Positions 8,255 through 63,008 of a DNA stretch of 64,000 nucleotides are shown here, piece by piece (position 1 is the stretch's first letter; each line of letters starts with the position of its first letter). Both the position numbers and the translations under genes were made by a program. The notes under the pieces are model-generated. The model did not search any database. It saw only the letters and a list, made by a program, of their open reading frames with translations, and was not told the origin of the DNA. The stretch is taken from positions 70,680,001 through 70,744,000 of the forward strand of contig NC_134471.1 in the NCBI RefSeq assembly GCF_964194025.1. The letters are read 5' to 3'. Origin of the DNA: Convolutriloba macropyga. Taxonomy: Eukaryota.

Positions 8255-10354
8255 ATGTTAAAGTTGCGGAAACGGCCTCCGCCAACCGCAAGTTTAGCAG
8301 AGCAGAAGAGGAAACATCGCAAGAACATTGCCAAACTGCTTCAGAAATCGCGTGAGTCACTGAACGAGTCAGAATTAAAGCTTCTAGAATCATCTGCAGA
8401 TACAATCAAAATTATCAACCAATCAAAACGTTCCAAACAACTCAGCATATCAAGGCAGAATATCGTTGTCGATGACGAAGAGCTATTGACTGAGAAAGTC
8501 GACCAATTAGCAGCTTTAATTCGCAATAGGGATTTGTTTCCTTTCATTGGGCTGAATTAGTAACCAATAGACCAAACAGAGTGCATGGACAGCCAAGTTG
8601 TATAGATATTGCGACCCAAATCCAAAAGTTGAAGAAATTAAAATTTTTTGGCTAGTGAAATTTTTGACGCATTTTCACCCGAGATACATTTTTCTCTTAC
8701 TCATTGAGCAATTGGTTATATTTCTGCCATAGGCCAGCTGTTTGAATTATCTTCAAATACTAATTCATCAAAAGTACACTGAGTTTTGCGTTACCTGTCG
8801 TTTTAAATCAACTTTTTCAGTATAATTACTATTATTTTATCCCTTTTCATGAAAATTCCTCAAAAATTTGTAGAAATAACGTTTTTGTCACAGTTTTTGA
8901 TCTAAACGTGCACCGTTAGTTTCAACTCTAGATCAATTCTCGCTTGAGTGCGACGCGGATTGGCTAAATTCTCAATAAAAGGAAACATTTCATATTTAAT
9001 TTACAGCAATTGCTGTCTGTTCTACACTGGTGCTGGCATTTCGACCTCATGTGGTCTGCCCGACTTCCGTTCACGTGAGTGGGGTGCGTGGACAAATACT
9101 GACAGTGTGAAGGAGTATTTGTCCAACTCAGAGAGGTCGCCATTTGCTATGATGAGGCCAGCTGCCTCACACATGTGCATTCAGGTTCTTTTAAAATTTT
9201 CAAAGCTTTTGAAACCATTTTTAGTGTCGGTAATTGAGTGATTGCCGTCAATTCAGGATGCTACATACCTTTTGAGTGCGTGTGCCAATGTACGTTGGGT
9301 TAGTCAATTGACAGCTAAGCCATCGAGACTGCTCCCTTCATTGCAGGCTTTCTATCATGAGAAATTTTAGTCTTTGAATTTTTAGCCAGAATTTTGAGTA
9401 GAAACTTGTGATTTGATAGGAATTTTCGCTTCTTCTAGGAATTGTCGCGAAAGAATCAATGAGGTACCATTTATTGGAGCATTAGTCATTTATCAAATAT
9501 CGTCTAATTCTTCACAAAGTTTATAATTTTGTGAGCTCACCATTTAAATTCATTTTGATCGATTGCGTTTCGTTGTTCGCGGGTGTTCGCCAAGATTTTG
9601 TTCATTTCGCACTTTTTGATGCCTGTTATAATGTGTTTAGGCCTTAGTATCTCAGGGACTTATCCAACACGTGGTATCACAGAACTGTGATGGCTTGCAT
9701 CTTCGCTCGGGTATTCCTCCCCAACGCCTCTCAGAAATCCATGGAAACATGTTTGCAGAAGCTTGTACCGAGTGCCAACCTCAATGTGTTTTCTACAGAC
9801 GCTTCGACGTAACTGAATCCACGAGTTTCAGGAAACATTTCACGAGTCGCGTCTGCCCCGAGTGCAATAGTCGGTTACGCGACACTGTCGTGCATCGTGA
9901 CGAGTACAACACCACCGATTACCCACAAAATTGGGTTACAATTGACCCGTTAGCCCAAAAAGCAGACCTAGTTGTGTGTATGGGTTCTCGTATGGATATT
10001 ATCAAGTGCTACAAGCGGTTATGGCGAAGTCCTGGAGTTGAAAAGAAACGTCTTGTCATCATCAATCTTGGCTGGACGACAAAAGATAAAATTTGTCGTC
10101 TGAAAATCAACGGTGACTGTGATGAAGTCATGAACATGCTATGCAATAAGCTCAATATCAAACCCGTTGAGTATAACAAGGAAAACGATTTGTTACTTCA
10201 AATTGCTGATAGAACCCTGAAGGGTTTTAATGGTGGTAGTGGTGAACCAAAGACACCTGATATTTATAATGAAGATGAAATATCAAACTCAAAGGGTTAC
10301 ATTCCTGGTTGGATGCGAGTGATTTTGAATCGCGTCCATAACTCGAAAAAGTAG
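8255..10354 (+). CDS. SIRT7: NAD-dependent deacylase, sirtuin-7-like (class IV); coding exons 8255-8529 (or 8535), 9007-9184 and 9641-10354
   Basis: The N-terminal helix (VVDDEELLTEKVDQLAALIRN, cf. SIRT7 VCDDPEELRGKVRELASAVRN), YTGAGISTS, QHVVSQNCDGLHLRSG, SEIHGNMF, two CxxC zinc motifs, RRFDVTE, KCYKRLW and LKINGDCDEVM all match SIRT7. Acceptors ttacag (9006) and tttag (9640), donor gttctt (9185); splice phases are compatible. An upstream acceptor ends at 8215. Confidence 0.9.
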
Positions 10355-36300: not shown

Positions 36301-36674
36301 GACTGTGGAATTAAATCAAAGAAAAAAATAGCATTTTAGCTGTCGATGAATTCAACTCGGTTCCTTATCTATTTCTAGCTAATTGCTTCGGCAGCAATTC
36401 TATTTGGCAGCTATATTCGGTAGTCTGCTGGCTATGTCTATACAACATTAACGAAGAAAGAAGCAATCTGGTTAGGCTGAAACAATCTGGTCTTGTTGTT
36501 TTGGAGAATATGGTCTAATCTAAATCTTTTTTCGTGAAATGTTGGTCGAACTAGTTGCCTAGTTTATTTTTATTTTTCAAATCCCAGAGCCTTACGTTGA
36601 TTCGAATTTCCTTGTGCCAAATATGTATTTGAGAACTTCAGATCATTTGGCATCGTATTTGGCTGTCCGTTTAG

Positions 36675-37108
36675 GTAACGGAAGGTCCAATCCAGCGCCA
36701 GGAATTGGACTTTACTGGGGGAATCATCACCCGTTAAACATCATCCGATCTGGAGATCTTCGGTCCACGAATAATGGAGCAGAACTGGAAGCCGTTATTC
36801 TGGCTCTGAAGACTGCTCTAGCGAACAACGAAATCCAAAATTTGATAATCAGAACGGATTCCCTTTTGACCGTAAATAGCGCTACCAAATGGATTCGGAA
36901 ATGGAGGCGAAACGATTGGCGAAGTTACAATGGCTCCCCTGTCAAAAACCAGAGTCTTTTGAAGACAATAGATGATCTGCTTTATGACGCACGATGCTGC
37001 AATATTGATGTTCAATTCGTTCACATCCCAGGCCATAAAGGAGAGTATGGCAACGAAATGGCGAATAAATTTGCACAGTGGGGCGCTAAAAAATTTCGAC
37101 ACTGTTAA
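36675..37108 (+). CDS. Coding exon 3 of the fusion gene: eukaryotic RNase H1-type catalytic domain
   Basis: Acceptor ccgtttag (36674). NGRSNPAPGIGLYWGNHHPLNI, TNNGAELEA, IRTDS, KWIRKWRRNDWRSYNGSPVKN and HIPGHKGEYGNEMANKFA match RNase H1 motifs. Confidence 0.9.
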
Positions 37109-41295: not shown

Positions 41296-43148
41296 GATAA
41301 GCTGATGGTTGCTCCGATTTATAAATCTTGATTGTCCACCTGGTGTTGTGTGTAGTTGTTTTGAGCACGATGAAAAGCTATTTAAATATACCTAATAATA
41401 AAGGTAGTAAATGCAAATTTCGGTTTATTTTCCCTTCGGTTAATATTAAGGTCGCAGAATATTGCAGTAGTTATTAGGTTCTGATTATTAGAGTGAAGTT
41501 TCGAGTCATCTAGCGTCGAGCTTCCTTGCCATCAGAGCGTGGCTTGAGCAATATAAGTTTTGTGCCTTACCGCCACTTTTGAGTTTGTTATTGCAAAACT
41601 ATTAGTGAGGAGAGTTGTTTTAGATTTATAAGTTTCTACAAGGACAAATGTCATGCAAAAACCAAAGCCATAGGAAAATGTTTTTGTTCAATAGAGGAAG
41701 GTTTTTTGGCTTTTCAAATTTGGTGCGCTGTGTATTGTCTTTGGGCATGGATCCTTTGCTCAGATTTAATTTAAAAGCTATTTTCTAATTGTGTTCCTTA
41801 TTGGACCTTTGGTTACTTTTTTGTCGATGTTCAATGTGAAAATGTGTAGTGATGTGTGTGATGGTTCATATTATCTGCTTAAAAACAAAATTCGTCATAT
41901 CTATTTTGTTTATATTAAGTTTCATTTTTCTTTCACTTGCCACTCGCACGGTTAGGTAACTCATGATAACTTGGAACATGACATGACTTACTGTCTGAAT
42001 CGGTGTAGGCGAGAGAAGGGGGATCAGAATAAGAATAGATCTCAATTTCAGGGAGGCGACGAAATTTTCGGACTTCGAAAATCACTTGTTTCCTCTTCAT
42101 TATTCGTATACTGCTTAGTCCAATTAAGAGTCACAACGCAAGCAAAGGTTCTGAAAGTTAGTGTGGTACTGAGGTCAGAAGTCATGATTCACATCTGAAA
42201 TATGACAAAGATTTTGCTAAATAAATCGTGAACTATAATTGATCCTATTGAAGCTCATTTGCAAGTTCAGCCTTTTTCGAACGTTCGCTTTCGATTTAAT
42301 TTTATGGGACCGACTACAGAATTGTGCATTTTCTTTTATAGACACCAAATCAATTCTAATCAAATGGTTCTAAATGGTTCTTCAAATGGTTCTAAAAAAT
42401 CAAATTCTAAGCAAATTGAGAGTAAAAAGTTATGTCTTTTCAAAATGACTTACAGAATGAGGCACGTTAAGTGAGCTGGTCTAAATTTGACAAAATATGT
42501 GTGCTGGTAGTGAAATGATCTTTGACGATGGACAATAAAAGTACGCTTTTGCATTTTTCAAACCAGGCCTCCTGGCTGTCAATTTCATCACAGCTTTTGT
42601 TCTCTCCTTGTTGTAGCTTGATGGATTCTTGTATGGTCCTGCTCATGTATTGCTTGTTTAGAGCTATCTCTTATTAGTGCGAACGAGGGGAGGTGGGGGG
42701 GTATTATCTACCGAGTGCATACAGCGTTGTTGATTGTTTTTATTTCCCCTAATCCTCCCCTCGTACGTCCTTTGTTGCGTGCTCCAACACGCAATCATTA
42801 GAGCTCTTATCAATAAAATGAGATATAGTTCACAGTATGGACTCCTAAAGCACTTTCGACGTAAAGGAACTCTAATAAAATGTGTAACTTGACTAGAATT
42901 CAGTCAAATCTTTAGCTAAGCTAATTTTGATATTTCTTAGCTGGTTGACCAAAAGGTACCCAACTCCCCGTTTTTATCGGTTGTTTTTGCACGAGTTGAT
43001 TCTGGTTCCATATAAGGAACTAGAAACATGACGATTGAATGCAATAGTTGACCCGGTAATTGTGACAAAGGAGGTGTTTTTGTTGACGTTGCTGGTTCCA
43101 GTGGCTACTGTTGGAATCCTCAAATATTGTACCGGATTCTATGTCGAC

Positions 43149-43179
43149 ATCGCTTCTCGGCCTTTTGGCTAAGATCATG
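43149..43179 (+). ncRNA. U2: U2 snRNA 5' fragment (3'-truncated pseudogene)
   Basis: atcgcttctcggccttttggctaagatca equals the conserved first 29 nt of metazoan U2. The branch-point recognition sequence and the rest of U2 are absent. Confidence 0.9.
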
Positions 43180-43190
43180 CAAATTATCCT

Positions 43191-44684
43191 ACAATTATCC
43201 TCCCGGATGCCAACTATGCCCAAGCGGTTGTGGACAACATCACCAAAACCGCCTCTTCCCTCCATATGACCTTTAACATCAAAAAATGCGGGGTCATGAA
43301 TGTAAACCACGATGTTTTCATGAACATGGAACCGATCCCCGCCACGCCAAACTACAAGTACCTCGGCGCCTGGGCTAACAACGAAAAGCTTGTGGGCTTG
43401 AACGATGCCTTCAATTTAGTAAAAGCCGACTGCGATCTGATCCTAAACAGCGACTTGACCCCAATGCAAAAGTTGCACGCAGTCAGGACGCACGTTCTGC
43501 CAAAGCTCTATCATTTAATTCAAAACACGTCTCCCCTACAATCTCATCTGAAGAAGATTAATGCATATATGAGGAAAGTGGTCAAAATAATCTGCTTCCT
43601 ACCTGAAAAGGCAACTTCAAGCTATTGCCACCTTAGCAGGATACATGGGGGGCCAGGAATACCTGACGTCGTTTGGCTGCGGCGCACGAATATAATTACG
43701 TCCCTTATCGCCTGCATGAATCAGGAACCAGAATTCACAGAAATAGCACGGGAGATTCTGGGAGTCGAGAACCTCCATGCAATTGTTGATAAAATAAACT
43801 CCGGTGAACGAGCTGGCTTGCACCCTGTCCTGAAAGAAGTTTCTTCGGCTTTAAAAGCGTTTAGCAGTGAAAATGAGGCGGAATACCAACTCAAAGCAAA
43901 TGACAGAAACCATCTAATCCTGACGAAAGATGGAAAGTTCATACCCTTCTACTCCACTCACTTGAAAGCTGTGTCCAACATGTTACCTCTCCGTCAGCTT
44001 TTAAAATGCAAGAACCAAGGACGGTTCTTTGAAACATTGCAACACTCACCTGCGGCAACAAGATCAATCTACAATTTCCATACAAAGATGTGCGATTGGC
44101 GTTTTGCTCACAAAGCAAGACTAAATCTAAGCCCCTTGAAAGGTTCAATAACGTGGACAGATCAAATAAATAAAAACTGCAGACGTTGCCAACTAGGCGA
44201 CGAAACCCTGAACCACGTGTTGAATTCATGTCCAGCCCAAAAGAAAGAAATTGTAGGACGACACAATAAAGTACGCGACCACATTGAAAAGTGGATACCT
44301 GACCATGTCACCTTTTTTTCGGAACAGCGTTTTGGCGACTGCCAACCCGATTTCGTCATCGAAACGGACACTCAATACATTATTGCAGATGTGAAGATCT
44401 CAAATGAAAACCCATCCTTATGGAATCGAATTCATAGCAATAATGCAACCAAATACGAAAAATTAAAAAACTACTTTGCCAACCGAGGAAAGCCAACAAG
44501 TGTTGAGACACTTCAGTTTGGATGCTTGGGATCGGCCTCGATGTCGTGCGCTAAAACCTTGAAAAAGATCATGCAAAGTCAACGGAAAACAAACGCCACA
44601 CTTCGAGCAATCTCAAATATACTTGTCCACCAGGCACGTAATCAAACTGTTACCCACCTTACCGGGAAGCACCAAAATGAGTGA
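43191..44684 (+). CDS. C-terminal part of the RT-RLE polyprotein (open frame, truncated just after the YADD position)
   Basis: TIILPD..MTFNIKKC, YKYLG, GGPGIP, CRRCQLGDETLNHVLNSC, RHNKV and QPDFVIETDTQYIIADVK. Confidence 0.88.
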   Translation, partial: TIILPDANYAQAVVDNITKTASSLHMTFNIKKCGVMNVNHDVFMNMEPIPATPNYKYLGAWANNEKLVGLNDAFNLVKADCDLILNSDLTPMQKLHAVRTHVLPKLYHLIQNTSPLQSHLKKINAYMRKVVKIICFLPEKATSSYCHLSRIHGGPGIPDVVWLRRTNIITSLIACMNQEPEFTEIAREILGVENLHAIVDKINSGERAGLHPVLKEVSSALKAFSSENEAEYQLKANDRNHLILTKDGKFIPFYSTHLKAVSNMLPLRQLLKCKNQGRFFETLQHSPAATRSIYNFHTKMCDWRFAHKARLNLSPLKGSITWTDQINKNCRRCQLGDETLNHVLNSCPAQKKEIVGRHNKVRDHIEKWIPDHVTFFSEQRFGDCQPDFVIETDTQYIIADVKISNENPSLWNRIHSNNATKYEKLKNYFANRGKPTSVETLQFGCLGSASMSCAKTLKKIMQSQRKTNATLRAISNILVHQARNQTVTHLTGKHQNE

Positions 44685-46678
44685 AAAACTCCGAAAGTTT
44701 AACAATTTCCGCTGAACTCCTTATCCTTTACTTTTGTACTAAACTTATTTCCCTTTTGTTTTGTTCTTTTTCTCTTGACTCAAATATCATCGGATGATTT
44801 TGTGCTATTCAAATCTGTAAACAATAATTATCTGTATTATTCTGTGATATTAATTCAATATTCTATCTGTTCTTGTCAGCTTAATATCTGGCATGTCGGG
44901 CATTGCCTGGCACCAATATTAAACTGCTTTTTGATCCTCGGATCCGACAAAGAAGCTTGCTTCAGTCGGTCCACGGATCGTCCCGGTCCTACACTACCGC
45001 CGGGTACGGTCCATCAAAATAAAGAAATATTGGAGTCTCAGCTTTGAAGCATGCTGGATTAACGCTACCAGAATAGAATCATGATGTTTGTTGCGTTCCA
45101 GAAGCTTTGCCGAGTCTGTTGAGGTACTGTTTCCTTATTGTTCGTTTCCTCAGCTTCATCTATTTAATGGTCCTCTGCCCCCATTAATTTCAAATTGAGA
45201 TTTTCTCCTCTGAATTTGAGGATTGACATTTATCTATTGCCAATTCCATTATGTTCATCTACACAATTTCCGAGTGCATGAAGATCATATTGAGCGTGCC
45301 AGAAGATCTTTCCTACTGCTAACATCTTGAAATCGTTGGCAAAAATTAATAGACGGGGCAAAAGCAGAACATTGGACAGGTCATTTGTGAAGATGAATAA
45401 CAAAAAAGACCTATTAAGGATCCATATGCAAGCCCGCTTGTGATTTTTAGTACATTAGCTTCTTTTCTCAACACGTGTAGACTGCTTTTGGTTATGTATA
45501 TATGTTTAGAAGTCTGTCCCTTTTTCGTGAATGGGGGTAACAGTTTTGATTTTCCAACTGTCTGGAATTTTCTGGAGCCTCTTGTTTTTTTTTCGGAACA
45601 ATGTACTATATTCGTAATATTTCGACTAGTATGTCGGTCGAAGCCCGGGTATTCCATTTGGGCCTTGAGGTTTTTGGACTGCTAATGACTGAATTATACT
45701 TCGTATTTTTTGGTTTCCGTATACCGAAGTTTGTGCTCACCGGAGTATGAAAGTCTATTTTGCTAAAATTAATTTTTGGTGAGAAAACGAAGTGAAAGAA
45801 CTGATTTAACATATTGGATTGTTGATACAGAACTTTACGTTGTTTCTCTCCATGATATAAGACATTTGGAAGGTTGGAAGGCTAGAATACCTATTTAGGC
45901 TTTTAGTTGTTTGAAAATTATATCGGTATCCTTTGTGTTCATGAGTGTTTTGGTATCCCTTGATTTCAATCCTCACTCGAAGTGTCTCATTGCTAAATAC
46001 ACTGAAATCTTTATTCCTTTTGAGGACTCGAGTCGTGACTAAGAAAGTAAGCCCAATTGTTTTCTTCAAACATGTTTCAAATGACGTAGTTTTTTCTCAC
46101 AACAGAGAGCAATTAACATTTTTATGGAGCTGTACGCGAATTCCGATAGTCATAAGATTAAACACTGGTTTCTTCTTACAAATCTGATTACGTAATTATC
46201 GGATTTGATATATGGTGTTCGTTTGTGTTGAGATTAGACAAAACTTTGATAAAGTTGCCGCCCACAGTCGACTTTTTCAACGATTGTTATTTATTTTATG
46301 ATGAGCTAAGAGAGAGGAAATTTTTTCGAATTGTAGAAAATCTTTTTATATACGCATTTCTTTAAACTCATTTATTTTTTAGTTATTTGTTGCAGCTTTG
46401 GCTCTAAAAGAAACTACAGAGAAGCAAATTCGATTCGAGTTTTTTTCGTGGTCAAGGGATCTGCTAGGCCAGCAGCGCGAGTTTTTAAACAGGTCAACTG
46501 AGCTGGAATAGGGAATTTTTGGAACTAATTTTGTGACTTCAAAATTGGTCGATAAACACCACAGTTTTTACTACACTCCAGTTCTCAAAATTTATTGTTC
46601 ATTTCGGCTGTTTTGTTCCTCTACGTGCGTCATTTAGATACTTATGATAATAAGTTATCATTAACAGATCTTTGGATC

Positions 46679-46709
46679 ATAGCTTCTCGGCTTTTTGGCT
46701 AAGAGCATG
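46679..46709 (+). ncRNA. U2: Second, older U2 snRNA 5' fragment
   Basis: atagcttctcggctttttggctaagagcatg has 3 mismatches to 43149-43179 and the same 3' end point. Confidence 0.8.
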
Positions 46710-49275
46710 ACCTAACTTGAGGGCCTTCTGCGTTTTGAGAAGTTTTTTTGCTTTGAACATGTGTTTTCAGGTTGCTGTGTTAAATTACTCCCGTTGATTA
46801 GCGGTTTGGATTCTGATTTGGTTTCCCCTCGTTTTAATTCGTTTATAAACAAATGAAATGCGCGCGTATTTGCATTTGCCTCAACAAATATGCTGAGCGC
46901 TTGTATTACCCTGCAGTAGTTGGTTTTTAATAAACTCTGAAGTAATTTGCCCTTTGTAGTTTTGACATTATCATCGATAGGTCTCTTAGGTTCTTAATAG
47001 AATGCAAGCTGATTGAATTAATGTTTTCGGTTTAAAGCTTTTTATTTCTTTGACTGTGAAACTAACTGTTTCCAAGAAAGTTTGGCGATTTTTTTTAGTT
47101 TTGTCTAGAAATGTTGATTTTGTTGTCTGATCTCTTAGTCTCATTAATTTCACGTGTCATCAGTTGCTAAGGATGTCTAAATCAATCAATTTAATCGTTT
47201 CAGGACATAGATTTTGCTTTCTCTCAATTGAATGCTGTTCGTTTTCAAAAAATTTTAGTGAGTATTTGAGTTTTTGCATGTATTTGTCATACTTATTGTT
47301 GTCTTATCACTTATTCTGTATGATGACGAGTCTTTTCGGTTGCTAATGAAGAATAAATCACTTATTCTGAATAATGACAATTCTCTTTGGCTGCTAATGA
47401 AGATCTTTATTTCTTTGAAAAATTCTTTCAGTGCATAGCTAATGATTTTGCTGACTTTTATACTACTATTGTTTAAAAACTATACGCCAATTCCTTATTT
47501 TTGGAAAATCTGTTGTTTTTTCGTTGTCTTAATTTTATTCTCATTTATGACAAGTTTGATTGGTTACTAATGAGGAAAGTGCATCTAATAGGGTGCTTTT
47601 GTCCATAGGAATTGATTTTTTGATTTTGACACTTCCCTTGAAACATTGAAGTTAATGTTTTAATCTTACTTTGTTTTTCCTGGGGTCCTGCCGCTCACTC
47701 TCTAAAAAAGAAACAGTTATTGGCCTTGTAGTGCGGCGTCATTGACTGAGATACCGTTTGTTTTCGAATTGTTTAAATGAATTTGTGTATCTTCATTTGT
47801 AGTTCTATTGTCCCTTTTTCAGCCGTGGAAAAAGAACTGGTAAAAGGTATTTTACGGCTTTGAAATTTTTTTTGCTACGCTGTGGTTTTAGATTCTGGAA
47901 TGCAGTTATGTGTTTATTTTACTTTGAATCCTGATTTTCAAAAATTTTCTAACTTCTAATTGCCTTAAACCTGGTAAGAGCAAATTAGCTCTCTGCATGA
48001 TCAGCGCACTAAGAGGCAACAGATACGTTATACCGCAGTATTATAAAGTGTGCTCTACGCTCCTGCTTTTAACGGTTGACTTTTTTAAATCGAACTGTGA
48101 CAATGATTTTTGGCTTCCTTTAACATCGTCACAGTCGTTAGGCTAACTTGACGTTTGGCTGAAATTTCCAGGAAAAACATAAAATTGCAACTTATTAAAT
48201 CGTCCTCATAATATGTTCTATATAAAGTGTCCTTTTGTTGCCAGATTACATTCTTTTGCACAGATTTGGTGGGTTTTCTTAAAAAGTCTGAAGTCTGCTC
48301 TCTGGACTTAAGTTGCTTTATGTCAGAGTTACTTTAAACAGTAAATAAAAGTTTTTAATGTGAGCAAAGGCTGTAAGTTTTTTAACCACGGCTCTGTTTA
48401 AAATGGCAGTACCAGTATTTTTTGGTTGGTTGAATACAATTCATGATCACTAACGCATTTTCTGCCGAGTGAGAGAAAATGATCCAGAAATTTGTTACGT
48501 TGCTTAGAATTCAAATAATGGCTTGACCTATGAGCAGTTTTTACCTATAAAGTGTTCTGTGGAAAGTTGAGTACATGGTCCCATGCACCAGAAAATCTTC
48601 TTTATCCTGAAAATCGCTTCGTTGACTTAGGATTCAAAGAGCTACAGGAATACCAACAAGGTGATCAAAAGCTGATGAGCTTATGGCCAATTGCATTGGC
48701 AAATGTCAACTAGCATTTTCTTACATCCATCTTTGCATCAGCTGGTTGATTTCATTACCGTGATCGGCGATTTTTTTCAGAATGCCTTAAATACTGAGAT
48801 TGTAAAGTTCTTTCTGTAATGTATGCAATTATTATAATGTTAGGAAGAGGGTCACCAGTGGTTATCTTCACTGAAATTTGAAAGACTCCTCAAGCTATTC
48901 AGTAAGATTATCGCGACAATTAGGTTAATGAATAGATCAATTTAACTTAAAGCAATCTCAAATGAATGCATCAGCAACGTATATTTTTTTTCTTTCATTC
49001 GTCAAAATCTGCAGAAATAGGCCTAAAACTTACACTTCAAAGTTCTGATAAAAACGCTACTTTACTGAAATTAAGTTAGATTGAGTTATGCCTTTTGTTT
49101 GCATGTCTGGTTTTGATCATTTATGGTTGATTTTTGGATGTTTTTAACCGTTTACCATGTTCTTTTTCAGATAATGTAAATATCTGATTTAATTTTCTCT
49201 TTCCGTTCATCTTGCATGAATTGCGTTGCGTGCGTCCGCTTCTAGTGAAGAAATAAAATAAACATGATCTAATCA

Positions 49276-52200
49276 ATGGCTGCCTACTTCAACTCTTCAG
49301 CTAATCGCAGGTCAACTGCTTCCCTATCCTCATCCTCCTCAACTGGTGGGTCTGGGACTTCACCAATCGCAACTTCGGCTATGTCCATTCCCCACAGTCC
49401 CTCAGCTCCTCCAACTGTCAGCTTCTCAAGTATTCTTTTGGCTGAAAACGAAGAAGATGATGAACTGTCCACTAGGCTGATCACTTCAGCAGCAGGTCAG
49501 TAAAAATTAACGAGCTATGGAAGTCTGGAAAAAGAAGTCTTTCAGGAAGTCAATAGGAGTAAGACGTTTAGGCGTTTTCAAGGGGCGCGAAACGGTGTTG
49601 AGAGGAGCCCAGATCGGCGACATGATTGGTTTTTTGCCATCGAAATGGAGGTCATAAGGTAGTCGATAAGTAACAAAAGAACAGCTGTTATAATCACCGA
49701 ATTTTTCTCAACTTTTTGCAATTTCCCGCCAAATCGCTACCAAGTTTTGCAACAAGTGATTAGTTGGATTCATTGTTTGAAGGAAGGAGCCAGTTAACCA
49801 CACTAAAAGATAATTCGAAATATTCAGAGGCCCCACCATTTTTTTGATAATTTTTCACTCTTTTCCCAAAACTTCAACATTTAAACTATTGCAAAACCTG
49901 TAACAATTTTGTTTTGGTTGAGACAGGGTCCCAGTTTCCAGAGCTTTTAAGGCAAAAGTTGCTCGAACTACAAAAATAATTTATCGTACACAAATCGTTC
50001 AGTGGCGCGTTCTGGGTATATATAGCTTTGTTTGTATCTGGCCTCTAAGTTTCCGCTGTGATTTTTAAGTGCTCTAGAACAAAAGTTTTAGCAACTAAAT
50101 TAGTCCTATATTCTTTTAATGCTATTTGTGACCGATTTTTCATCTGATGCTCTTAACTTTTGTCTTGAAAAATGCAGGATAAACAGGTAAAGCCGGAGGA
50201 CATTAAGTGGCTGAACACCTCTCTTAGAGCTCCACTAGTCTAAGTGTAGAATTCATCGAAGCTGCTGCTTAGAATACATAAAATCGTAGTGTAAAAGGCA
50301 GTTTTTGACCGGCTTGGACCCCCTGACTCTGTCCTCATTTTACCAGCTGTTGTCGGCCTTTGCCACATATTGCTTAAATTTCTTTCCTTGAAGTTTTCTC
50401 ATTCAGTTGATTATGAAAAGTGAATGTTTTTATAGTGCATCTTTTAATAGCTGAACAGCGATGGCTGGGGCCTTCTCTATTATTTGCTTTCTCTTGGTTT
50501 TCTACAATTCAATGAATTGTATTGGGGCGCTGTATTTTTTGATCTGTTCACACATTTTCATGATTTTTGAAGTCAAATTGGAGTAGTGATTTTGGTCACG
50601 CCGAAACAGGAAGTGGAGCGAAAATGCGAGTGATTTTTTGCGACGTGATTTTTTTGCTCGAATTTTAAAGTAGAGCGAAAAATTTGTGTTTGAATAAAAA
50701 TTCATTTTCTCGATTGTGATTTTTTGTTCGGATGCGGCAATTTCACTTCAATTTTATCCGTTTTTTTGGATTTTTGCATCACATTTTTTTCTTAATGGTG
50801 TTTTCAATCCAATTGCTGTCCAATCATGGTCTAGACTTGAGTTTACTCAATGAAAATTCCTTGAATTGTTTCAGGACTTGTCCTGCTATGTTCATTTCGT
50901 TGTCAAGATTTTTGTTACGAGTATATGACATCACAATCACTTCTAATCTGCTTTTTGTTCAGTCGTTCATGCAATTTCAACTGCGTGCGTGACGTAGTTT
51001 TTCACTCTTTTTGGAGAGTTGGAGAGAGAGTTTTTCTGTTCATTTGCGTGATTCAGTTTTTGGTCACGCGTGACTTACCTCGCTCTCAAAAATGACTTCC
51101 TGACTCTGTAACTGACTTTTCTTTACTTTAATCCAAAGATATGAGGACAAGTGAGTGCGTGCCACTCTAATTGAAAGTTTTTTGGAGAGTAGCTAATAGA
51201 AGCAGCAATAACTTATACGATTTCGTAATCGAAATATAACATTTCAGTATTTAACAAAAAATATAAAAAATTTCTCTTTGGTCTGTTTCTGTTGCTATCT
51301 TTTTGAGACTGCAGCTCTGTAAAGCTATTGCGGCTTTTTTTCTGGTAATCTGCCAGCTATATTGTTTTTTTTAGGTAGTGGATCGATTTCTTCTGAACCC
51401 GATGATCTTTCGCACAGCCAGACGTCAGTAGACGCAACACCGAAGGCCAGTATTGTCAGATCTTCTCAAAAGCGCAACGAGTTGAGGTAACAATTATTGT
51501 ATCGATTTTGAGATATTGAACAGTAGAGTAATAGTTCTCTAGAATCCGATGCTGTCAAGAATACTAAGTTTTGAGATCCTTGGAATTTACTCTGGTCGAT
51601 TGATAATTACTGATGTAAAAATTACCGATTGTAAATTGTCATATTCAACCAAGAGAAGGCGTGGAAGCTATTTCAGATATGGCATTATGCTTTTTAATAT
51701 ACTCATGAAAGTGATTTTGAGTTCGTTAATGCTGTCTCAAAGTTCGAGAGTCCAATAATCTATCCCATATCGGGCTCTAAGATTACGTATTTTCAGTTTA
51801 AGCACATTAGACCACTAATTACACAATGATTTCATTTTATGGCCTGCTGACCTCGTTTCGGTCCATTAGTTACTTGATACGTCAAAATTAACGTAAGTAT
51901 ACCATAACGGGGTTAAAATTTTCCCGGGCAGGGGCTATAATGGGAAAGACCCAAATTTTTTTTGCGTTTAGAAGTCGCCGTTCATTGTCTTGCGAAGTCC
52001 AGCAATTAGATCTTTCCCAGAGTAACGACGGAAATTTGGCCGTCAATTCTCGCAATCAACAGGCGAGGAGACACTCGTTTTCACCTGTGCAAAGTGGAGA
52101 TGAACAGATCATGCCTACAACTGCTGCCATGAGTGAAACGGGGCCTACGTCACGTGAAAAGGTAAATAGAGAATTGTTGGTCCGTTTAAGGAGGAACAAT

Positions 52201-55681: not shown

Positions 55682-57029
55682 ATGACCAGTCCTGGTGGTA
55701 GTACTCCTCCACCTGCCGTTACGCCCCCACCTGAAACTCCCATAACACATCCAAATCTTTCACTTGTATCTTTTTCAGGCAATGATCCTAATCAGGATGC
55801 CACTTCTTTTTGGAACTGTAGAAAACAAAATACTCTTTTCACTAGGAACTAGGCCTACAGCACCCGCTGCACAAACTAGCTATGATAAAAGGCAACAATC
55901 CTTATTCGGCTCACTTTTAACTGATACAGCACTAGAATGGTTTGAAAGTGAAGTCACAGATGCTACAGATTGGAATACTTTAAAAGATGAATTTATAAAA
56001 AGAGTCACAGACGGTAGAGACCAATTTAGATTTAGACTTGAGGTTGAGAACACATTCAGGCAGGAAGGAGAATTAATAAAGAACTATCTACATAGAATAA
56101 AGAGTGGAGTTGATAGATGTTGGCCAGAAAAGATACCAACAAGTATTGAAGATGATGACAATATAAGAAGGGAGAAAGAAAGACAACGAAGTCAGAAATA
56201 CATAGATTTTGCTATAAGAGGACTAAGACCACAAGGTTTAAAACGCAAAGCGCACGAGATACTTATTGAGAATCCTTCAATAACTTGGACACAGTTTGTT
56301 GATCACTTAGTCGTAAAGGACTTAACATTTTCTGTAACAACAGAACCTAATGGAGCTACAGGACTAGATAAACTTAAAACACTAGAGAGCAAAATTAATG
56401 ATTTAACCAGTCTTTTCAAAAGCAACGAAGTAAACGCTATAGATACTTCTAGGCCAAGAGACCCTAATATAAAAGGCAGTCCTAACAGTACTAGATTTTG
56501 TGATTATTGCAGAAGCAATGGTCATTCCATCTCTAGATGCACAAAGAAACATAGATGATAGTGTTAACAAATTGAGAAAGGAACTAGTTGAACCAAGAAG
56601 GCCAAATATAACATTCTCTAATGATTATAGAAAGAATAACCGAGGCAATACAAGATTCAATGTTCCTAGAAACCAAGGCTATCAACCAAGAGGTGGCTAC
56701 TCAAACTATAATCCTAGGTTCAACAAGCCTAACTATCAGCAACAAAATACATCATTTAGCAGTTATGGCAATAGATTCACTCAACCATACGAACAAACCT
56801 TCCCAAAAACACATATAGAAATAATGAACCAAATCTTGAACAACAATCACCATCACAACAGCAACAGCCACAAGGTGCTAGCTTCTATACACCAAGTAGA
56901 AATAACAATCTACAACAAAGACAATCAAAACCTAACAATATTCAGCAACAACCAAATCAAATAAGTTTCGTTGAAGGTGACGATGACTACGTAAATGCTA
57001 TAACAGACTTCTTTCCTTTAAACTTTTGA
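55682..57029 (+). pseudogene. Gypsy gag with frameshifts
   Basis: ATG at 55682 (MTSPGGSTPPPAVTPPP..FSGNDPNQDATSFW), retrotransposon gag core (ALEWFE..WNTLKDEFIKR), a CCHC knuckle and an N/Q-rich tail ending DFFPLNF*. Confidence 0.85.
57017..57023 (+). promoter_or_regulatory. -1 ribosomal frameshift slippery site T TTA AAC at the gag/pol junction
   Basis: X XXY YYZ heptamer in the gag frame, one codon before the gag stop; the -1 frame is open into the protease motif. Confidence 0.75.
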
Positions 57030-57926
57030 AGTCTCCGAACGCTACTAAAGAAAGTAGTACTAAGTCAAGAATTTACCTCAACTTATATCACTTTGCCACC
57101 GGAAATAATAGTGGTTTAGAAGTAGAGTTCATGATTGACCCAGGATCAGCTTGAACTATCATCAATCATCCTACATACCTTGCACTAGTAAACCTTGGAC
57201 AAAATTTGCATCTACAAAATACTAATTGCGATTCAAAAACATATACTGGTTCATCAATCAGAATGCTTGGCTACACAACTATCCAATCTAGTTTCGAAAC
57301 TGACGGAAAATATACAGTCTCTCATAAAGTGTTTGTCACTTAGGAACAGAGACAGAACATAATAGATATTGATTTCTGCCATTTGTTTCTAAAAGCACTT
57401 CACTTTGATATAGCCGCAGTAGAATTAAAAACTGAAAGGAATTTAATTTTCTACGGCTCACTCAACAATGAGAAAGATTATCCGTACATAACTAAAATGA
57501 CTGCTTTAAACATAAATCAACCGATCTTTCTGCAACAGAAAAGTACCCAACTGTACAAGCAAAAGCACCCCAGTCAAACCTTATTTACACCAGGAACATA
57601 TTTCATGCCCCATATTAATGTTGCAAAAACTGACCTAGTCTTTGTGAACACACTTTGTCCACAACCTGAAGAATTTCTACCCATGTTCATGGAGAATCAA
57701 ACGAATCACCCAATACAAATAAATAGAGGAGTAATAGGTTATGCTATGTGTGATATAAACGACAAACCTATACAAAGATACAATATCAGATACTGTACCG
57801 AATTTACAAGTACAATACTAAACGAAAGTGAGGATATATTACAGTTGCTTACATAACAGTTGCTTCATACTGAACACAGTAGTAAACAATTTACAAGAAG
57901 GACAGCAAATTCAAACTAATTCTTGC

Positions 57927-58343
57927 ATTAGATATGTAGATTTTCGTACCCAATCTATATTTGACTCTAATATGCCTATAGCGCACACGATATCCTCAGA
58001 TGCAGAAATGAGAGAAGGTTTTGCTAACACAATCTCCAGAAGAATACCCTTATTAAAGGACTACTGTAAAAGTAGAAACTGTGATATAGGTCACATAATA
58101 AGTTTCAGAGCAGATAATAACTTAGTATATAATCTCATCACTAAGGCTAATCATTATGAAAAGCCAACAATTGATACAATCAAAATAACGCTACTTGCTA
58201 TGAGAGATCATGCACTAGGACTAAATTTACGCTGTATAGCGATGCCAAAAATAGCTTGTGGTTTAGACGGAATGGATTGGAGAGAGATATCTTCTCTAAT
58301 TGAACAAACATTTAAGAATTCAGGAATAACTATCTATGTGTAT
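57927..58343 (+). other. TARG1/OARD1 (Poa1p-like) macrodomain, in frame with RT
   Basis: IAHTISSDAEMREGFA, VYNLITK..YEKPT and IAMPKIACGLDGMDW..IEQTF...ITIYVY match TARG1 (LAHCISEDCRMGAGIA, YYLITK..SHKPT, MPRIGCGLDRLQW..IEEVF..IKITVY). Confidence 0.9.
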
Positions 58344-61300
58344 ACAAGCAAAGATGATATTGATAAACTACAAAAAGTAGAAACCAATACACTAGATCGG
58401 GAAGAGGCGCTCGAAATTATTGAGAGTGAGTTATTAGAAAAATGCAAAGAAGATGAGAGAGAACTAGCCACAGACTTCTCTACCGAAGCCAAAGAGTTAT
58501 GTAGATCTAAACTCAACGACCAGTTTCCTAAGTTTAGAGATAAACTACAAAGCAACCCAATCATAACTAAAGCAGTTAGTGACTTTGTAATTAAGCAAAA
58601 TAGAAATACAGTTCAAGACATAGAGCATCTAGAAAGGTTCTTAGATAATTTTGATTTCACGCAAAGTGATTTGACTGATGATGAATTGTTTGAGTTGATA
58701 GAAATAATACTTCAGGATAATGATGTCTATTCACATCATAAGTATGATATTGGCAGAACTAAGCATAAGTTTCATTTACCCCTAAAGAAAGACGCAACCT
58801 TTAAAAAGCAACGACCAAGCAAAATACCCATTCATCTCAGAGATAAATTAGAAAAACTTATGGATGAATTAATTCAAGCAGGAATAATCAGAGAGCTCAA
58901 TGAAAACGATGATATGAATAGTTGGTTTGTCAATCCCGTTATCATATTACCTAAGAAGGATTATGTAAAACTAGTCATTGATGCTAGATACCTAAACTCT
59001 ATAACTGAGACAAGTAATTCTAGTTGGCCACTCGAACCACTAAACGTTCTAATGACAAGAATAACCGGAACTATATTTACAAGTAGTGATTTATCATCAG
59101 CTTATAATCAAGTACCACTAACTGAAGATACACAGAAGGTTACAAGTTTTATTGTAGGAGGCAGACAATACACCTATCAAGTAGGATTTTATGGTCTTAA
59201 GCCATTACCCAGTTTCTTTAGCAAACTAATGCGTTATGCATTTGGACCTCTTATAAAGCGTAAACAAGCCATAACATACATAGACGATACTTTATTACAA
59301 GCTAAAGATAAGCGAGAAATGTTCACAATAGTAAAAGAGTATCACTCTTTGCTTCGAAAGGCAAACCTTAAAGCAGCACCCGATAAAACAATGTTTTTCT
59401 TTCGCAAAGTAAGATTTCTAGGGCATGTTATATCTAAAGACGGACTATCGCCTATTGCTTCGCGCATAGATGATATTAGAAACCTAAAAACGCCAGAATC
59501 AAAAAACAGAGTTTTAGTAATGATGGGTTTCTATCACACCTATATTTTGAACTTTCACAAAACCTCTATATGACTTAACTAAAGATTCAACATTATTCAA
59601 GTGGTTACCAGAACACGAAAAGGTATTCACAGACCTTAAACAAAGATTCTGTCACGACATTTCTAACGCATTCCCTTCTAATGACTATCCCTTTCATGTA
59701 CATGCTGATTCATCTAATTTAGGAACAGGTTGTGTTCTTATACAAGATTTTCCTGATAGAAAACGTATGATATCAGCAAACTCGAGAGTATTTGATAAAG
59801 CTGAACAAAAGATGTCCCCTCAACATAGAGAACTATGCGGAATAATATCTGCATTACAAACATATGAATTTTATGTTATTGGATCCCCTTTTCCAATTTA
59901 CCTATATTGTGATCACAGGCCAATTCTATTTCTTTGGTCACGGCGAGGACAAATGTCACATCGTTTCTTTAAGTATCAAGTTGTAATAACTAAGTTCCAA
60001 AACTTGCAAATTATATACACTGAAGGCAAAAACTTAGCGTTCCCTGATATTCTTAGCCGAAACGTTTCTTTAGCAGATGCTAAACTTTATCAACTAGAAC
60101 TCAAAGTAATACCTAAAGATATAAAGTTTCATATTAACGTAAAAGAAGTTAACTATTCTGTATTGCATCAAGACGATAAGGACGCAACAGCTAACGACTG
60201 TTATCCACTTATTGCTCAAGTCAAAGTCGAAAGAAAAAAACTTATTAATATAAATGATGAAGGTGACTTTAGCGTAGATGATGCACCAGACTACATAAAT
60301 GAACACTGTAATGCTATACACAGTTTCTCTGATTGTTTTCGTTACGGCCCACAAATAAATCAAATAATGAAATTAACTTCAGAACTAACTAGCGAGTATG
60401 ATAATCACTACTATTCCGAGATAGAAGAAATAGCTGAAATAAGCGATGATCGAGAAGGTTACGATGATCAAGACTGGTTAGACTTAGTAGAAGGTAATAT
60501 TGAAAACTCACTTATTGAACAATTAGAATCTGCTAAAGCCGACTATATTAGACGGAAAAAATTTAAGAAACTTATTGAACCAGAAGCTTTTCAAAACATC
60601 TCAGAAAAAGATGTCCACACAGATACATTAGATTTAATAGCTAAAGTTACAGATTTTGCAAAAACGCTAATCTTGACTCTGATAATGTTCTTGAAGAACA
60701 AGTAAACGACTCCGTGATAGATAAAGTTAGAGATTGGTTAAAAGTAGGCAAAGCTCCAGAAAAGCACTACATTATTAAACAATCTAAAGCACTACAAACT
60801 TATAGAAATAATTTCAACTTGTTGTTTCTAGAGAGTCAATATGATTTACTCTGTTATTCCGAATCTTGTGAAGACGGCTTGTTTGACGTTGGGATATGTG
60901 CACCACTTTCACTATTTCTAAAAATATTCGAAGTCGCACATACGCATGAACTTAGTGGTCATAGAGCAGAAAGCACAACTTACAATAGAGTTAAGCGATA
61001 TTTCTATTGGCCCGGTATGGTTAAATGGATTGAAATGTTAATGTTAGATTGCTTAAGTTGCCAAACAAATAAGTCAGCACGCAAAGACTTGAACCATTGG
61101 GACAATTGGAAGCTATACCCCTACATACACTTCATATTGATCATAAAGGTCCTTAACGACCACTTAGTAAAGGAAATAGATTTTGTCTTGTAATAGTAGA
61201 CGCTTTCTCTAGATTTATACAAGTATACCCTAGCAAGAATGCTGAAGCTCTCGAAACAGTAAATCAACTAGAGAATTTTATAACTACATTTGGTATACCG

Positions 61301-63008
61301 CAACAAATAGTACATGATAACGGCTATGCCTTTATTAGTAATGATTTCGTTCACTACACAAACGAAATGGGAATTACACTATGCCCCCGAACTGCATATT
61401 CACCGTGGACTAACGGCAAAGTAGAAGTACAAAATAAACATTTCACTAATTACCTAAGACATTTTATTAGTAAAAGTGGATCTAATTGGTCCGAGTACAC
61501 TAGTAAATTTGCATTTTCGCACAATACTGCAGTAAACTACAGTACAGGATATACCACTTATGAAATACTATTCGGAACAAAACCGCAAATACCCCTATCA
61601 CTAAAGTTAGGACTACTACGAGATAATCAAAAGAAATGCACATCAGAGTATTGTAGTAATCTACCGCCACACTCACATAGTGAAGGAACTTGTAATAACA
61701 AAAAGATAGAGAAATTGTCACAAAACAGATTATCTAACGAAATGTTAAAACGTGAAAATACATTTAGAACTATATACTCGAATACCTACACTAAATGTAG
61801 ACAAACTACGAATAAAGCACACAAGTATAGAAATATATTTAAACTCGGAAAGCCTATACCTGAAGGTAGAAAAGTACTATTAGAAAATCACTCTAAAGGA
61901 CTACTTAAGTCTAAAAAGCTACAAGAGCTACGCTCAGGCCCTTACACTGTGCAACGAATGCTAACTAATACTACATATGAAATACAGCATGATAAAACAA
62001 ATGAAAAGAAAACAGTGCATAGAAATCATATAGTACCTTATTACCCGAAAGAAGAGAAAATACAACAAGTAGTCGAGAACTATGTAGTCCCAGACGACAC
62101 GGATGATTATTATACTCAATATAATAAGCATAATATATCCAAATCTAATGCTTATAGAGGCGCACAACATATTGCTATTTCACAGTGGCCTTTAGTAGAA
62201 ACACAATATACTGTTAATCCTAGTTTAACGTTGAGGCTACCCCAACAAAAGATTCAGGCTTAGAATCGCTACAAAAACGAGCAGATAATACTACGCATAT
62301 ACAAGGCACAAGCTCTTCTAACTTTCTACCCCCACGCATTTCAACCCCCTACCCTATACAAAATATATATTCACCTATTAGCCCACAGCAAGAAAATTTT
62401 TCTACCCCACCTGATAATACTAGTAAGTTTAAAGCTACACGCAAATTATTCCCCCAAGCATCGCATAATAGCCCCACATCATCACCTCATAATTCTACAC
62501 CTACAGCTTCACCTAATGTTTCTAATTTACCAGACGCAAATGAAGTATTGAGCAGACCTCAGCGTAATAGAAAAGCACCTACATTCTTTGGTGAACCTAT
62601 TCCCTCTGACTTGCTACGTAAACTCAAAAAGAAATAGAGACACAAAATTTCTTTTAAATAATAACTTTATAGTAAAAAGCACCACTACGCACAAAAATCA
62701 TAAAAAAGCTAATATATGCAAAAATCAAAAGAAAAAGCTTGATTATAAACCAATAATAGACACCAAATACTACATCAATCAGTTTTCTCTCCCCTTCTCA
62801 CCTACATATGAGGCTCTAAGAGACTCCTCACAGTGGCAGCCAACAACGTCTTCTCCTCAAATACCAGGCATTCCTTATAGTTGAGTTCCCTCAACATTTT
62901 GTAACACCGCTCAAGGAATCGTTTGAAGAACTAAAATTGTTGCCTCCTTAACATTCTATTTCACAATTTCTTTATGTAAAGCCTATCCCCACCGTTTTCT
63001 CTCCCTTA

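Follow-up and report, generated by a model that had tools for sequence, protein, structure and literature searches.

A 5'-truncated Utopia retrotransposon copy interrupts a U2 snRNA gene in Convolutriloba macropyga

We analysed a 64,000-nt stretch of the 1.18-Gb genome of Convolutriloba macropyga (contig NC_134471.1, here C4, positions 70,680,001–70,744,000 of the forward strand; hereafter, the window), in which a U2 small nuclear RNA (snRNA) sequence is joined to a retrotransposon with a restriction-like endonuclease (RLE). The segment 43149–45019 is a U2 gene broken by a 5'-truncated copy of a Utopia element at the usual target site of its family, in the order U2(1–31), 12-nt filler, 5'-truncated RLE element and U2(37–192). 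The parts of the locus and its immediate flanks are given below in window coordinates, with the strand in parentheses.

43093..43104 (+): promoter-like motif at -56 from U2 +1 (profile p = 0.041), outside the proposed duplication; we take it to be proximal sequence element (PSE)-like, the profile itself being derived in this analysis
43122..43129 (+): left copy of AAATATTG, aligning with the equivalent stretch upstream of two dispersed U2 genes (L085 and L070)
43130..43148 (+): 19-nt stretch, a 17-mer of which is single-copy in the genome
43149..43179 (+): U2 snRNA nt 1–31, 31/31 identical to the genome's own U2, with the same end point as in sister insertions
43180..43191 (+): 12-nt filler at the junction that repeats the first bases of the element by slippage
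43192..44863 (+): 5'-truncated copy of Utopia family A, comprising the last 1672 of 3834 nt (from family A position 2162)
44864..45019 (+): U2 snRNA nt 37–192, 156/156 identical to the intact gene L002
45016..45029 (+): U2-type 3' flank with GAA at +9 (45024–45026), overlapping the right 8-mer (profile p = 1e-4)
45025..45032 (+): right copy of AAATATTG, reached by contigs from inside U2 in three of four sequencing runs

The initial annotation had described a chimera lying outside any U2 gene, with a U2 head, an imperfect duplication, an RLE-type element cut right after the catalytic motif of the reverse transcriptase (RT) and no U2 3' part. Head, duplication and cut were all recovered: the filler repeats the first bases of the element, which begins just past the YMDDL codons and contains the RT end, a CCHC knuckle, the RLE with its PD..DxK motif, a stop at 44684 and the 3' untranslated region (UTR). 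The U2 3' part, which had been overlooked, is present (Rfam U2 match at 44830–45019, 107 bits), and because U2 nt 37–192 follows at 44864–45019, the element interrupts a U2 gene whose two halves flank it. Microhomology makes the 3' junction ambiguous over U2 nt 37–39, and the target loss comprises U2 nt 32–36, or up to nt 38 given the microhomology. The frame is open for 503 codons. The small number of differences from the full-length copy L051 (7 in 1672 columns, 99.6% identity) bears out the earlier view of a young insertion. Having lost its zinc fingers and the bulk of its RT, the copy cannot encode a working RT or mobilise itself, and the interrupted U2 gene is destroyed. The U2 halves show zero changes relative to the intact genes L001 and L002 (1–5 changes in the other 12 intact genes), a pattern compatible with, but no proof of, a gene that still functioned in the recent past. 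We read the locus as a young Utopia insertion, dead on arrival, into a dispersed U2 gene that was already resident, with a probability of about 0.87.

At least 44 U2 matches occur in the genome (a lower bound, from 48 scored candidates), mainly clustered on C7; dispersed ones lie on C4, C6, C8, C12 and C16. A DNA search of the genome with the element returned 18 matches, and there are three full-length families, A (L051, 1074 codons), B (L057, 1093 codons) and C (L062, 1095 codons), which are mutually 39–47% identical in protein sequence. The RLE region gave 36 matches, of which 30 were examined and reduced to one row per element; among the resulting 24 distinct RLE ends, 17 are followed by U2 from nt 37–45 (13 of these at nt 37/38), three by a whole decayed U2, one by a partial piece and three by none. 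Similarly, 17 rows of 5' junctions reduced to 14 sites, 12 with a Utopia body and two without a recognised element, and the U2 piece ends at nt 30 or 31 in 11 of the 12 and at nt 36 or beyond in the other. Two checks proposed in the initial annotation, tabulation of the copies by flank and a search for full-length copies within U2 genes, were thereby run, and the family copies do associate with U2. Utopia is also found at the same U2 site in other dispersed loci (C6, C8 and C16). In published Utopia elements (NeSL clade, with RLE), downstream U2 resumes at about nt 39 (PMC4640811, Kojima and Jurka 2015). Because the sister 5' and 3' junctions agree and the published restart is at nt 39, the U2 head before the element is, from these comparisons, target DNA and not captured RNA. 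A junction is visible in just one further 5'-truncated copy, L052. It lies in a clustered gene that has a strong upstream motif, and it shows U2 1–31 plus a 14-nt filler; since truncated cDNAs cannot carry a U2 leader, we infer from L052 and the window copy a top-strand cut after U2 nt 31.

Several arrangements at U2 and related loci were noted in their own right. At L057:772-6706 (G000:C6), a family B element and a truncated copy of family A stand in tandem, each followed by the U2 3' half, with near-identical downstream flanks. In L060 (G000:C3413:823-5209), a unit made up of a decayed Utopia 3' part and then an entire decayed U2 is present three times in tandem. Nucleotide 30 is T in intact U2 genes (e.g., L001-L016), vs A in the U2 genes shown in the PMC4640811 supplement, and this nucleotide falls at the 5' junction of the elements. 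A repeat at 50498–50892 of the window is also present near several U2 genes (72–78% identity to L057, L013 and L004). Several U1 genes (L102-L105) lack their first bases and share one common upstream sequence, a pattern also seen in the U2 genes L078 and L088 and possibly reflecting insertions at snRNA 5' ends.

The flanks bear on whether the U2 gene was resident or delivered with the element. A U2-flank profile was built from 16 non-redundant flanks (20 before removal of near-duplicates), with four more, including both window loci, excluded; in leave-one-out tests, 12 of the 16 training genes scored p < 0.05. Measured against random window positions, the -56 motif (p = 0.041) is similar to those of L070 and L085 (0.064 and 0.057). 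Over the last 60 nt upstream of U2, the flanks matched best are those of dispersed genes on C8 and C6, with L085 first (p = 0.01 for the best of 16), and the alignment runs across the left 8-mer. The left AAATATTG is thus probably, on alignment, a piece of U2 upstream flank and not a target-site duplication. The adjoining 19 nt, which had been described as of unknown origin, are a real and single-copy stretch with no source elsewhere in the genome outside the window; they are likely the end of the U2 gene's own upstream flank; the left flank as a whole has no DNA relatives in the genome but itself. On the 3' side, 16 of the 26 other U2 loci have GAA at +9/+10, against a background of 4%. The two octamers exist where they had been annotated, at 43122–43129 and 45025–45032, but AAATATTG occurs 13 times in the window (7.7 expected), and flank-to-flank matches were also seen among 19 other U2 genes, 8 nt long in one and 7 nt long in four more. 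The pair is likely a coincidence, and the proposed target-site duplication probably a chance match.

Three older features lie downstream of the locus.

45174..45930 (-): old RT fragment of a CR1-type long interspersed nuclear element (LINE), a neighbour rather than the target
46679..46709 (+): older decayed U2 nt 1–31 piece, 28/31 identical, with a U2-type upstream flank matching that of L085 (p = 0.001)
48633..48740 (+): decayed Utopia RT scrap, 59% identical to family A along 37 aa (E = 9e-6)

The decayed U2 piece and the Utopia scrap indicate that the region is an old U2 site; this remnant is 1.6–3.7 kb from the locus, and a random landing so near has a chance of about 1e-4. Because a U2 gene was likely already in place, the event was probably an ordinary insertion and not a chimera outside U2. 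The CR1 fragment had been proposed as an old LINE target, a view that the comparisons do not support: its homology (approximately 45174–45930) lies on the right side only and ends 141 nt short of the right 8-mer, there is none in the left flank (p = 0.73 and 0.47) or across a modelled empty junction (p = 0.32), and the positive control of the same test beat all random stretches (0/200). Continuity of a LINE across the site was found by none of blastn, tblastx, DNA and protein profiles or local alignment. CR1 frames that seemed by eye to continue across the junction were rejected by these homology tests. As far as sequence comparison can tell, the CR1-type LINE adjoins the site without spanning it.

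Sequencing data were consulted from four runs, covering three samples and two studies. Contigs join the U2 3' end to the right flank in runs X1, X3 and X5 (three of the four, from both studies); run X4 was not counted because its contig begins merely 18 letters before the 8-mer. The left-flank letters were not found on any loose end among those listed for the four runs. A pattern search for a paralogue or empty site of the right flank gave 17 matches vs 14 in the control, none of which extends. As a separate observation, run X5 contains a 492-nt contig over window positions 44930–45419 at a depth of 648, vs 6–16 for its other contigs (about 40–100 times the depth of its neighbours), with five differences packed within 45021–45053 and none beyond; we did not take it as evidence of expression.

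Several results weigh against a resident U2 gene. An exact 8-mer within 30–40 nt on both sides would arise by chance in just 1.2–2.9% of cases. Support for a promoter is modest: the upstream similarity, when split, gives p = 0.18 outside the 8-mer and p = 0.12 inside it, and the 3' flank signal would fit a copied precursor RNA equally well. U1 flanks were unhelpful as an independent promoter set, as the U2 profile reached p < 0.05 in just 2 of 20, and a stretch near -200 that the old window piece shares with the genes on C6 and C8 is, by eye, less clear upstream of this gene. The closest CR1 relatives are merely 60–69% identical, so a decayed CR1 continuation could escape detection. Sample S1 may be the source of the assembly, and the loose ends listed are only part of the total. 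Finally, no empty allele was seen among the LINE relatives, the pattern matches or the loose ends listed.

Because no empty allele was seen, some weight, although small, goes to a retrocopied unit, in which a disrupted U2 gene at another locus gave rise to a transcript of the whole U2::Utopia::U2 sequence, which was then inserted in trans with a true 8-bp target-site duplication. Such an event would account for the exact 8-mer at both ends, the A-rich 3' end and the U2 parts unchanged relative to L001/L002, and U2-headed retroposons are known (SINEU, PMC4494074). We nevertheless consider it unlikely: none of the 18 DNA matches is a source copy with the same truncation, an RNA starting at U2 +1 would leave the 19 extra U2-upstream-like nt unexplained, a poly(A) tail is missing, the LINE does not span the site and an old U2 remnant lies next door. 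About half as probable is that an intact U2 copy first landed between 8-bp duplications, by retrocopying or DNA capture, and that Utopia later hit its normal site within it. Both the 8-mer pair and the canonical junctions would follow from this order of events, which however requires two recent events and places the promoter-like motif outside the left 8-mer, whereas pseudo-duplications are also found in ordinary U2 genes. The suggestion in the initial annotation that the RT switched template onto U2 RNA, giving a U2-headed chimera at an unrelated site, would suit a U2 piece that starts exactly at +1 and is then followed by filler, but it is close to refuted by a U2 3' half that resumes at the canonical nucleotide, and it is superfluous because full-length and truncated sisters within ordinary U2 genes are preceded by that same U2 1–30/31 piece (11 of 12 insertions).

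With insertion into a resident U2 gene as the preferred reading, the steps would follow the standard model of target-primed reverse transcription. The protein of a full-length family A copy would nick the bottom strand at U2 nt 37–39, about 1.7 kb would be reverse-transcribed until synthesis halts just past the YMDD codons, and the top strand would be cleaved after U2 nt 31. Priming of the second strand would slip once, producing the 12-nt filler, with a net target loss of 5–7 bp.

Other copies provide hints of how Utopia RNA may be made. At L057:772-836 (G000:C6:6915772 onward), U2 1–31 and four other bases are followed by a second U2 1–30 from +1 and then by full-length B, and L054 and L055 likewise show repeated U2 5' pieces. 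The duplicated U2 1–30 leader suggests, much as in R2 co-transcription (PMC3774820), the trace of an RNA template that starts at U2 +1 from a U2 promoter, even though this is a single clean case (L057) that DNA-level slippage may also explain. The earlier idea that the family is co-transcribed with U2 gains some support from that copy; the relaxed targeting that had been coupled to it does not, as the window copy occupies the canonical site and no loss of specificity was seen there. The families also share a near-invariant 5'-UTR motif of ~45 nt (A, L051, G000:C7:6150271-6150294; B, L057, C6:6915975-6915998; C, L062, C8:19224211-19224234), which the window copy lacks. At ≤2 mismatches it occurs eight times in the genome, all at U2/Utopia loci by position; it had no exact match in metagenome contigs. 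Its predicted fold is a three-way junction, in which pairing holds in 92% of cells and two-sided changes affect 5 of 11 basal pairs, although these represent few independent covariation events because the changes are mostly between families. The inner two stems have no two-sided change, and the RNAalifold consensus retains the basal stem only. The fold has no Rfam match, Rfam found no ribozyme in four 5' regions, and ARAGORN at default settings found no tRNA in the 5' UTRs of six loci. With relaxed settings, ARAGORN gave antisense tRNA-like matches in two of eight 5' UTRs (L057 and L063, family B), with a similar stretch in L062.

A tentative model, which we hold at well below even odds, is that Utopia is promoterless here and that its RNA starts at U2 +1 through a hijacked snRNA promoter, that the 5'-UTR three-way junction is a new functional RNA and that truncated copies mark a cut after nt 31. 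If so, the 5'-UTR RNA element would serve processing, translation or protein binding. The words 'promoter' and 'ribozyme' have no occurrence in the text of PMC4640811, and our literature searches listed no account of the production of Utopia RNA, a question that the duplicated U2 leader, together with the conserved 5'-UTR fold, opens to testing.

The rest of the window contains a broken Ty3/gypsy-type long terminal repeat (LTR) element at 55746–62260, with a weak Macro match before the RT in Pol (E = 6e-4, below the Pfam cut-off). Open frames at 9641–10351 and 36563–37105 encode Sir2-family and RNase H domains.

The locus itself is ordinary; what makes it useful is that it leads to three families that target U2, are intact and recently active, and have clean 5' junctions, a feature available for just 11 of 65 families in PMC4640811. 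The junctions of these three families suggest that the top strand is cut after U2 nt 30/31, and site-specific RLE elements are being mined as insertion tools (PMC13580325).

The assignment to a Utopia-like family in the initial annotation agrees with the junctions, RLE, CCHC and fingers, and all testable sequence-level features of Utopia were found. Each of the full-length copies L051, L057 and L062 has a single open reading frame (ORF) with two finger motifs, the region lost in the window copy, and RVT_1, and the C-terminus carries a CCHC knuckle and a PD..DxK nuclease, with no AP endonuclease (APE). No RNase H or protease domain was found with Pfam, and no Myb domain matched at E ≤ 0.1, a search that could miss a weak Myb; the absence of an R2-type Myb domain is a criterion for Utopia (PMC13188248). 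An RT tree built without named Utopia, NeSL or YURE references placed families A, B and C with 11 unnamed proteins in one clade (100/100) and left deeper nodes open. The best distant protein match has Ulp1 and RT, the NeSL layout, and the ESM Atlas returned generic RVT_1 clusters only.

Compared to Utopia as described in PMC4640811, the elements share a single-ORF layout of N-terminal zinc fingers, RT, CCHC and RLE, the same orientation, downstream U2 from nt 38/39 and the presence of several families within a small U2 gene family. Their 5' junction differs, being a short target deletion after nt 30/31, whereas Utopia 5' ends in arthropods are free of duplication, those in reptiles carry 20-bp duplications and those in oomycetes have lost the 5' fragment (PMC4640811). 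The U2-specific Keno has the same U2 3' junction (PMC4640811) but is of the APE type, with an AP endonuclease in place of the C-terminal PD..DxK nuclease. R2 RNA arises by processing of a host co-transcript, and the target sequence that stays attached to it influences the 5' junctions of R2 (PMC3774820). R2 proteins are the best solved relatives of the full-length ORF (9nl2, 9nl3, 9dou and 8gh6; E = 1e-29), with an alignment that skips residues 110–239; unlike this 28S-specific RLE element, those found here target U2, with no Myb detected and no HDV-like or other ribozyme found by Rfam in four 5' regions. Neither SINEU (PMC4494074) nor chimeras between snRNAs and LINEs, such as U6-L1, carry the 3' half of the snRNA at a defined cutting position, whereas both halves are in register here; what they have in common with this locus is a U2 5' piece ahead of retroelement sequence. 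Because the table of Utopia hosts in PMC4640811 lists nematodes as the only worm phylum, Utopia in this worm may represent a new host group.

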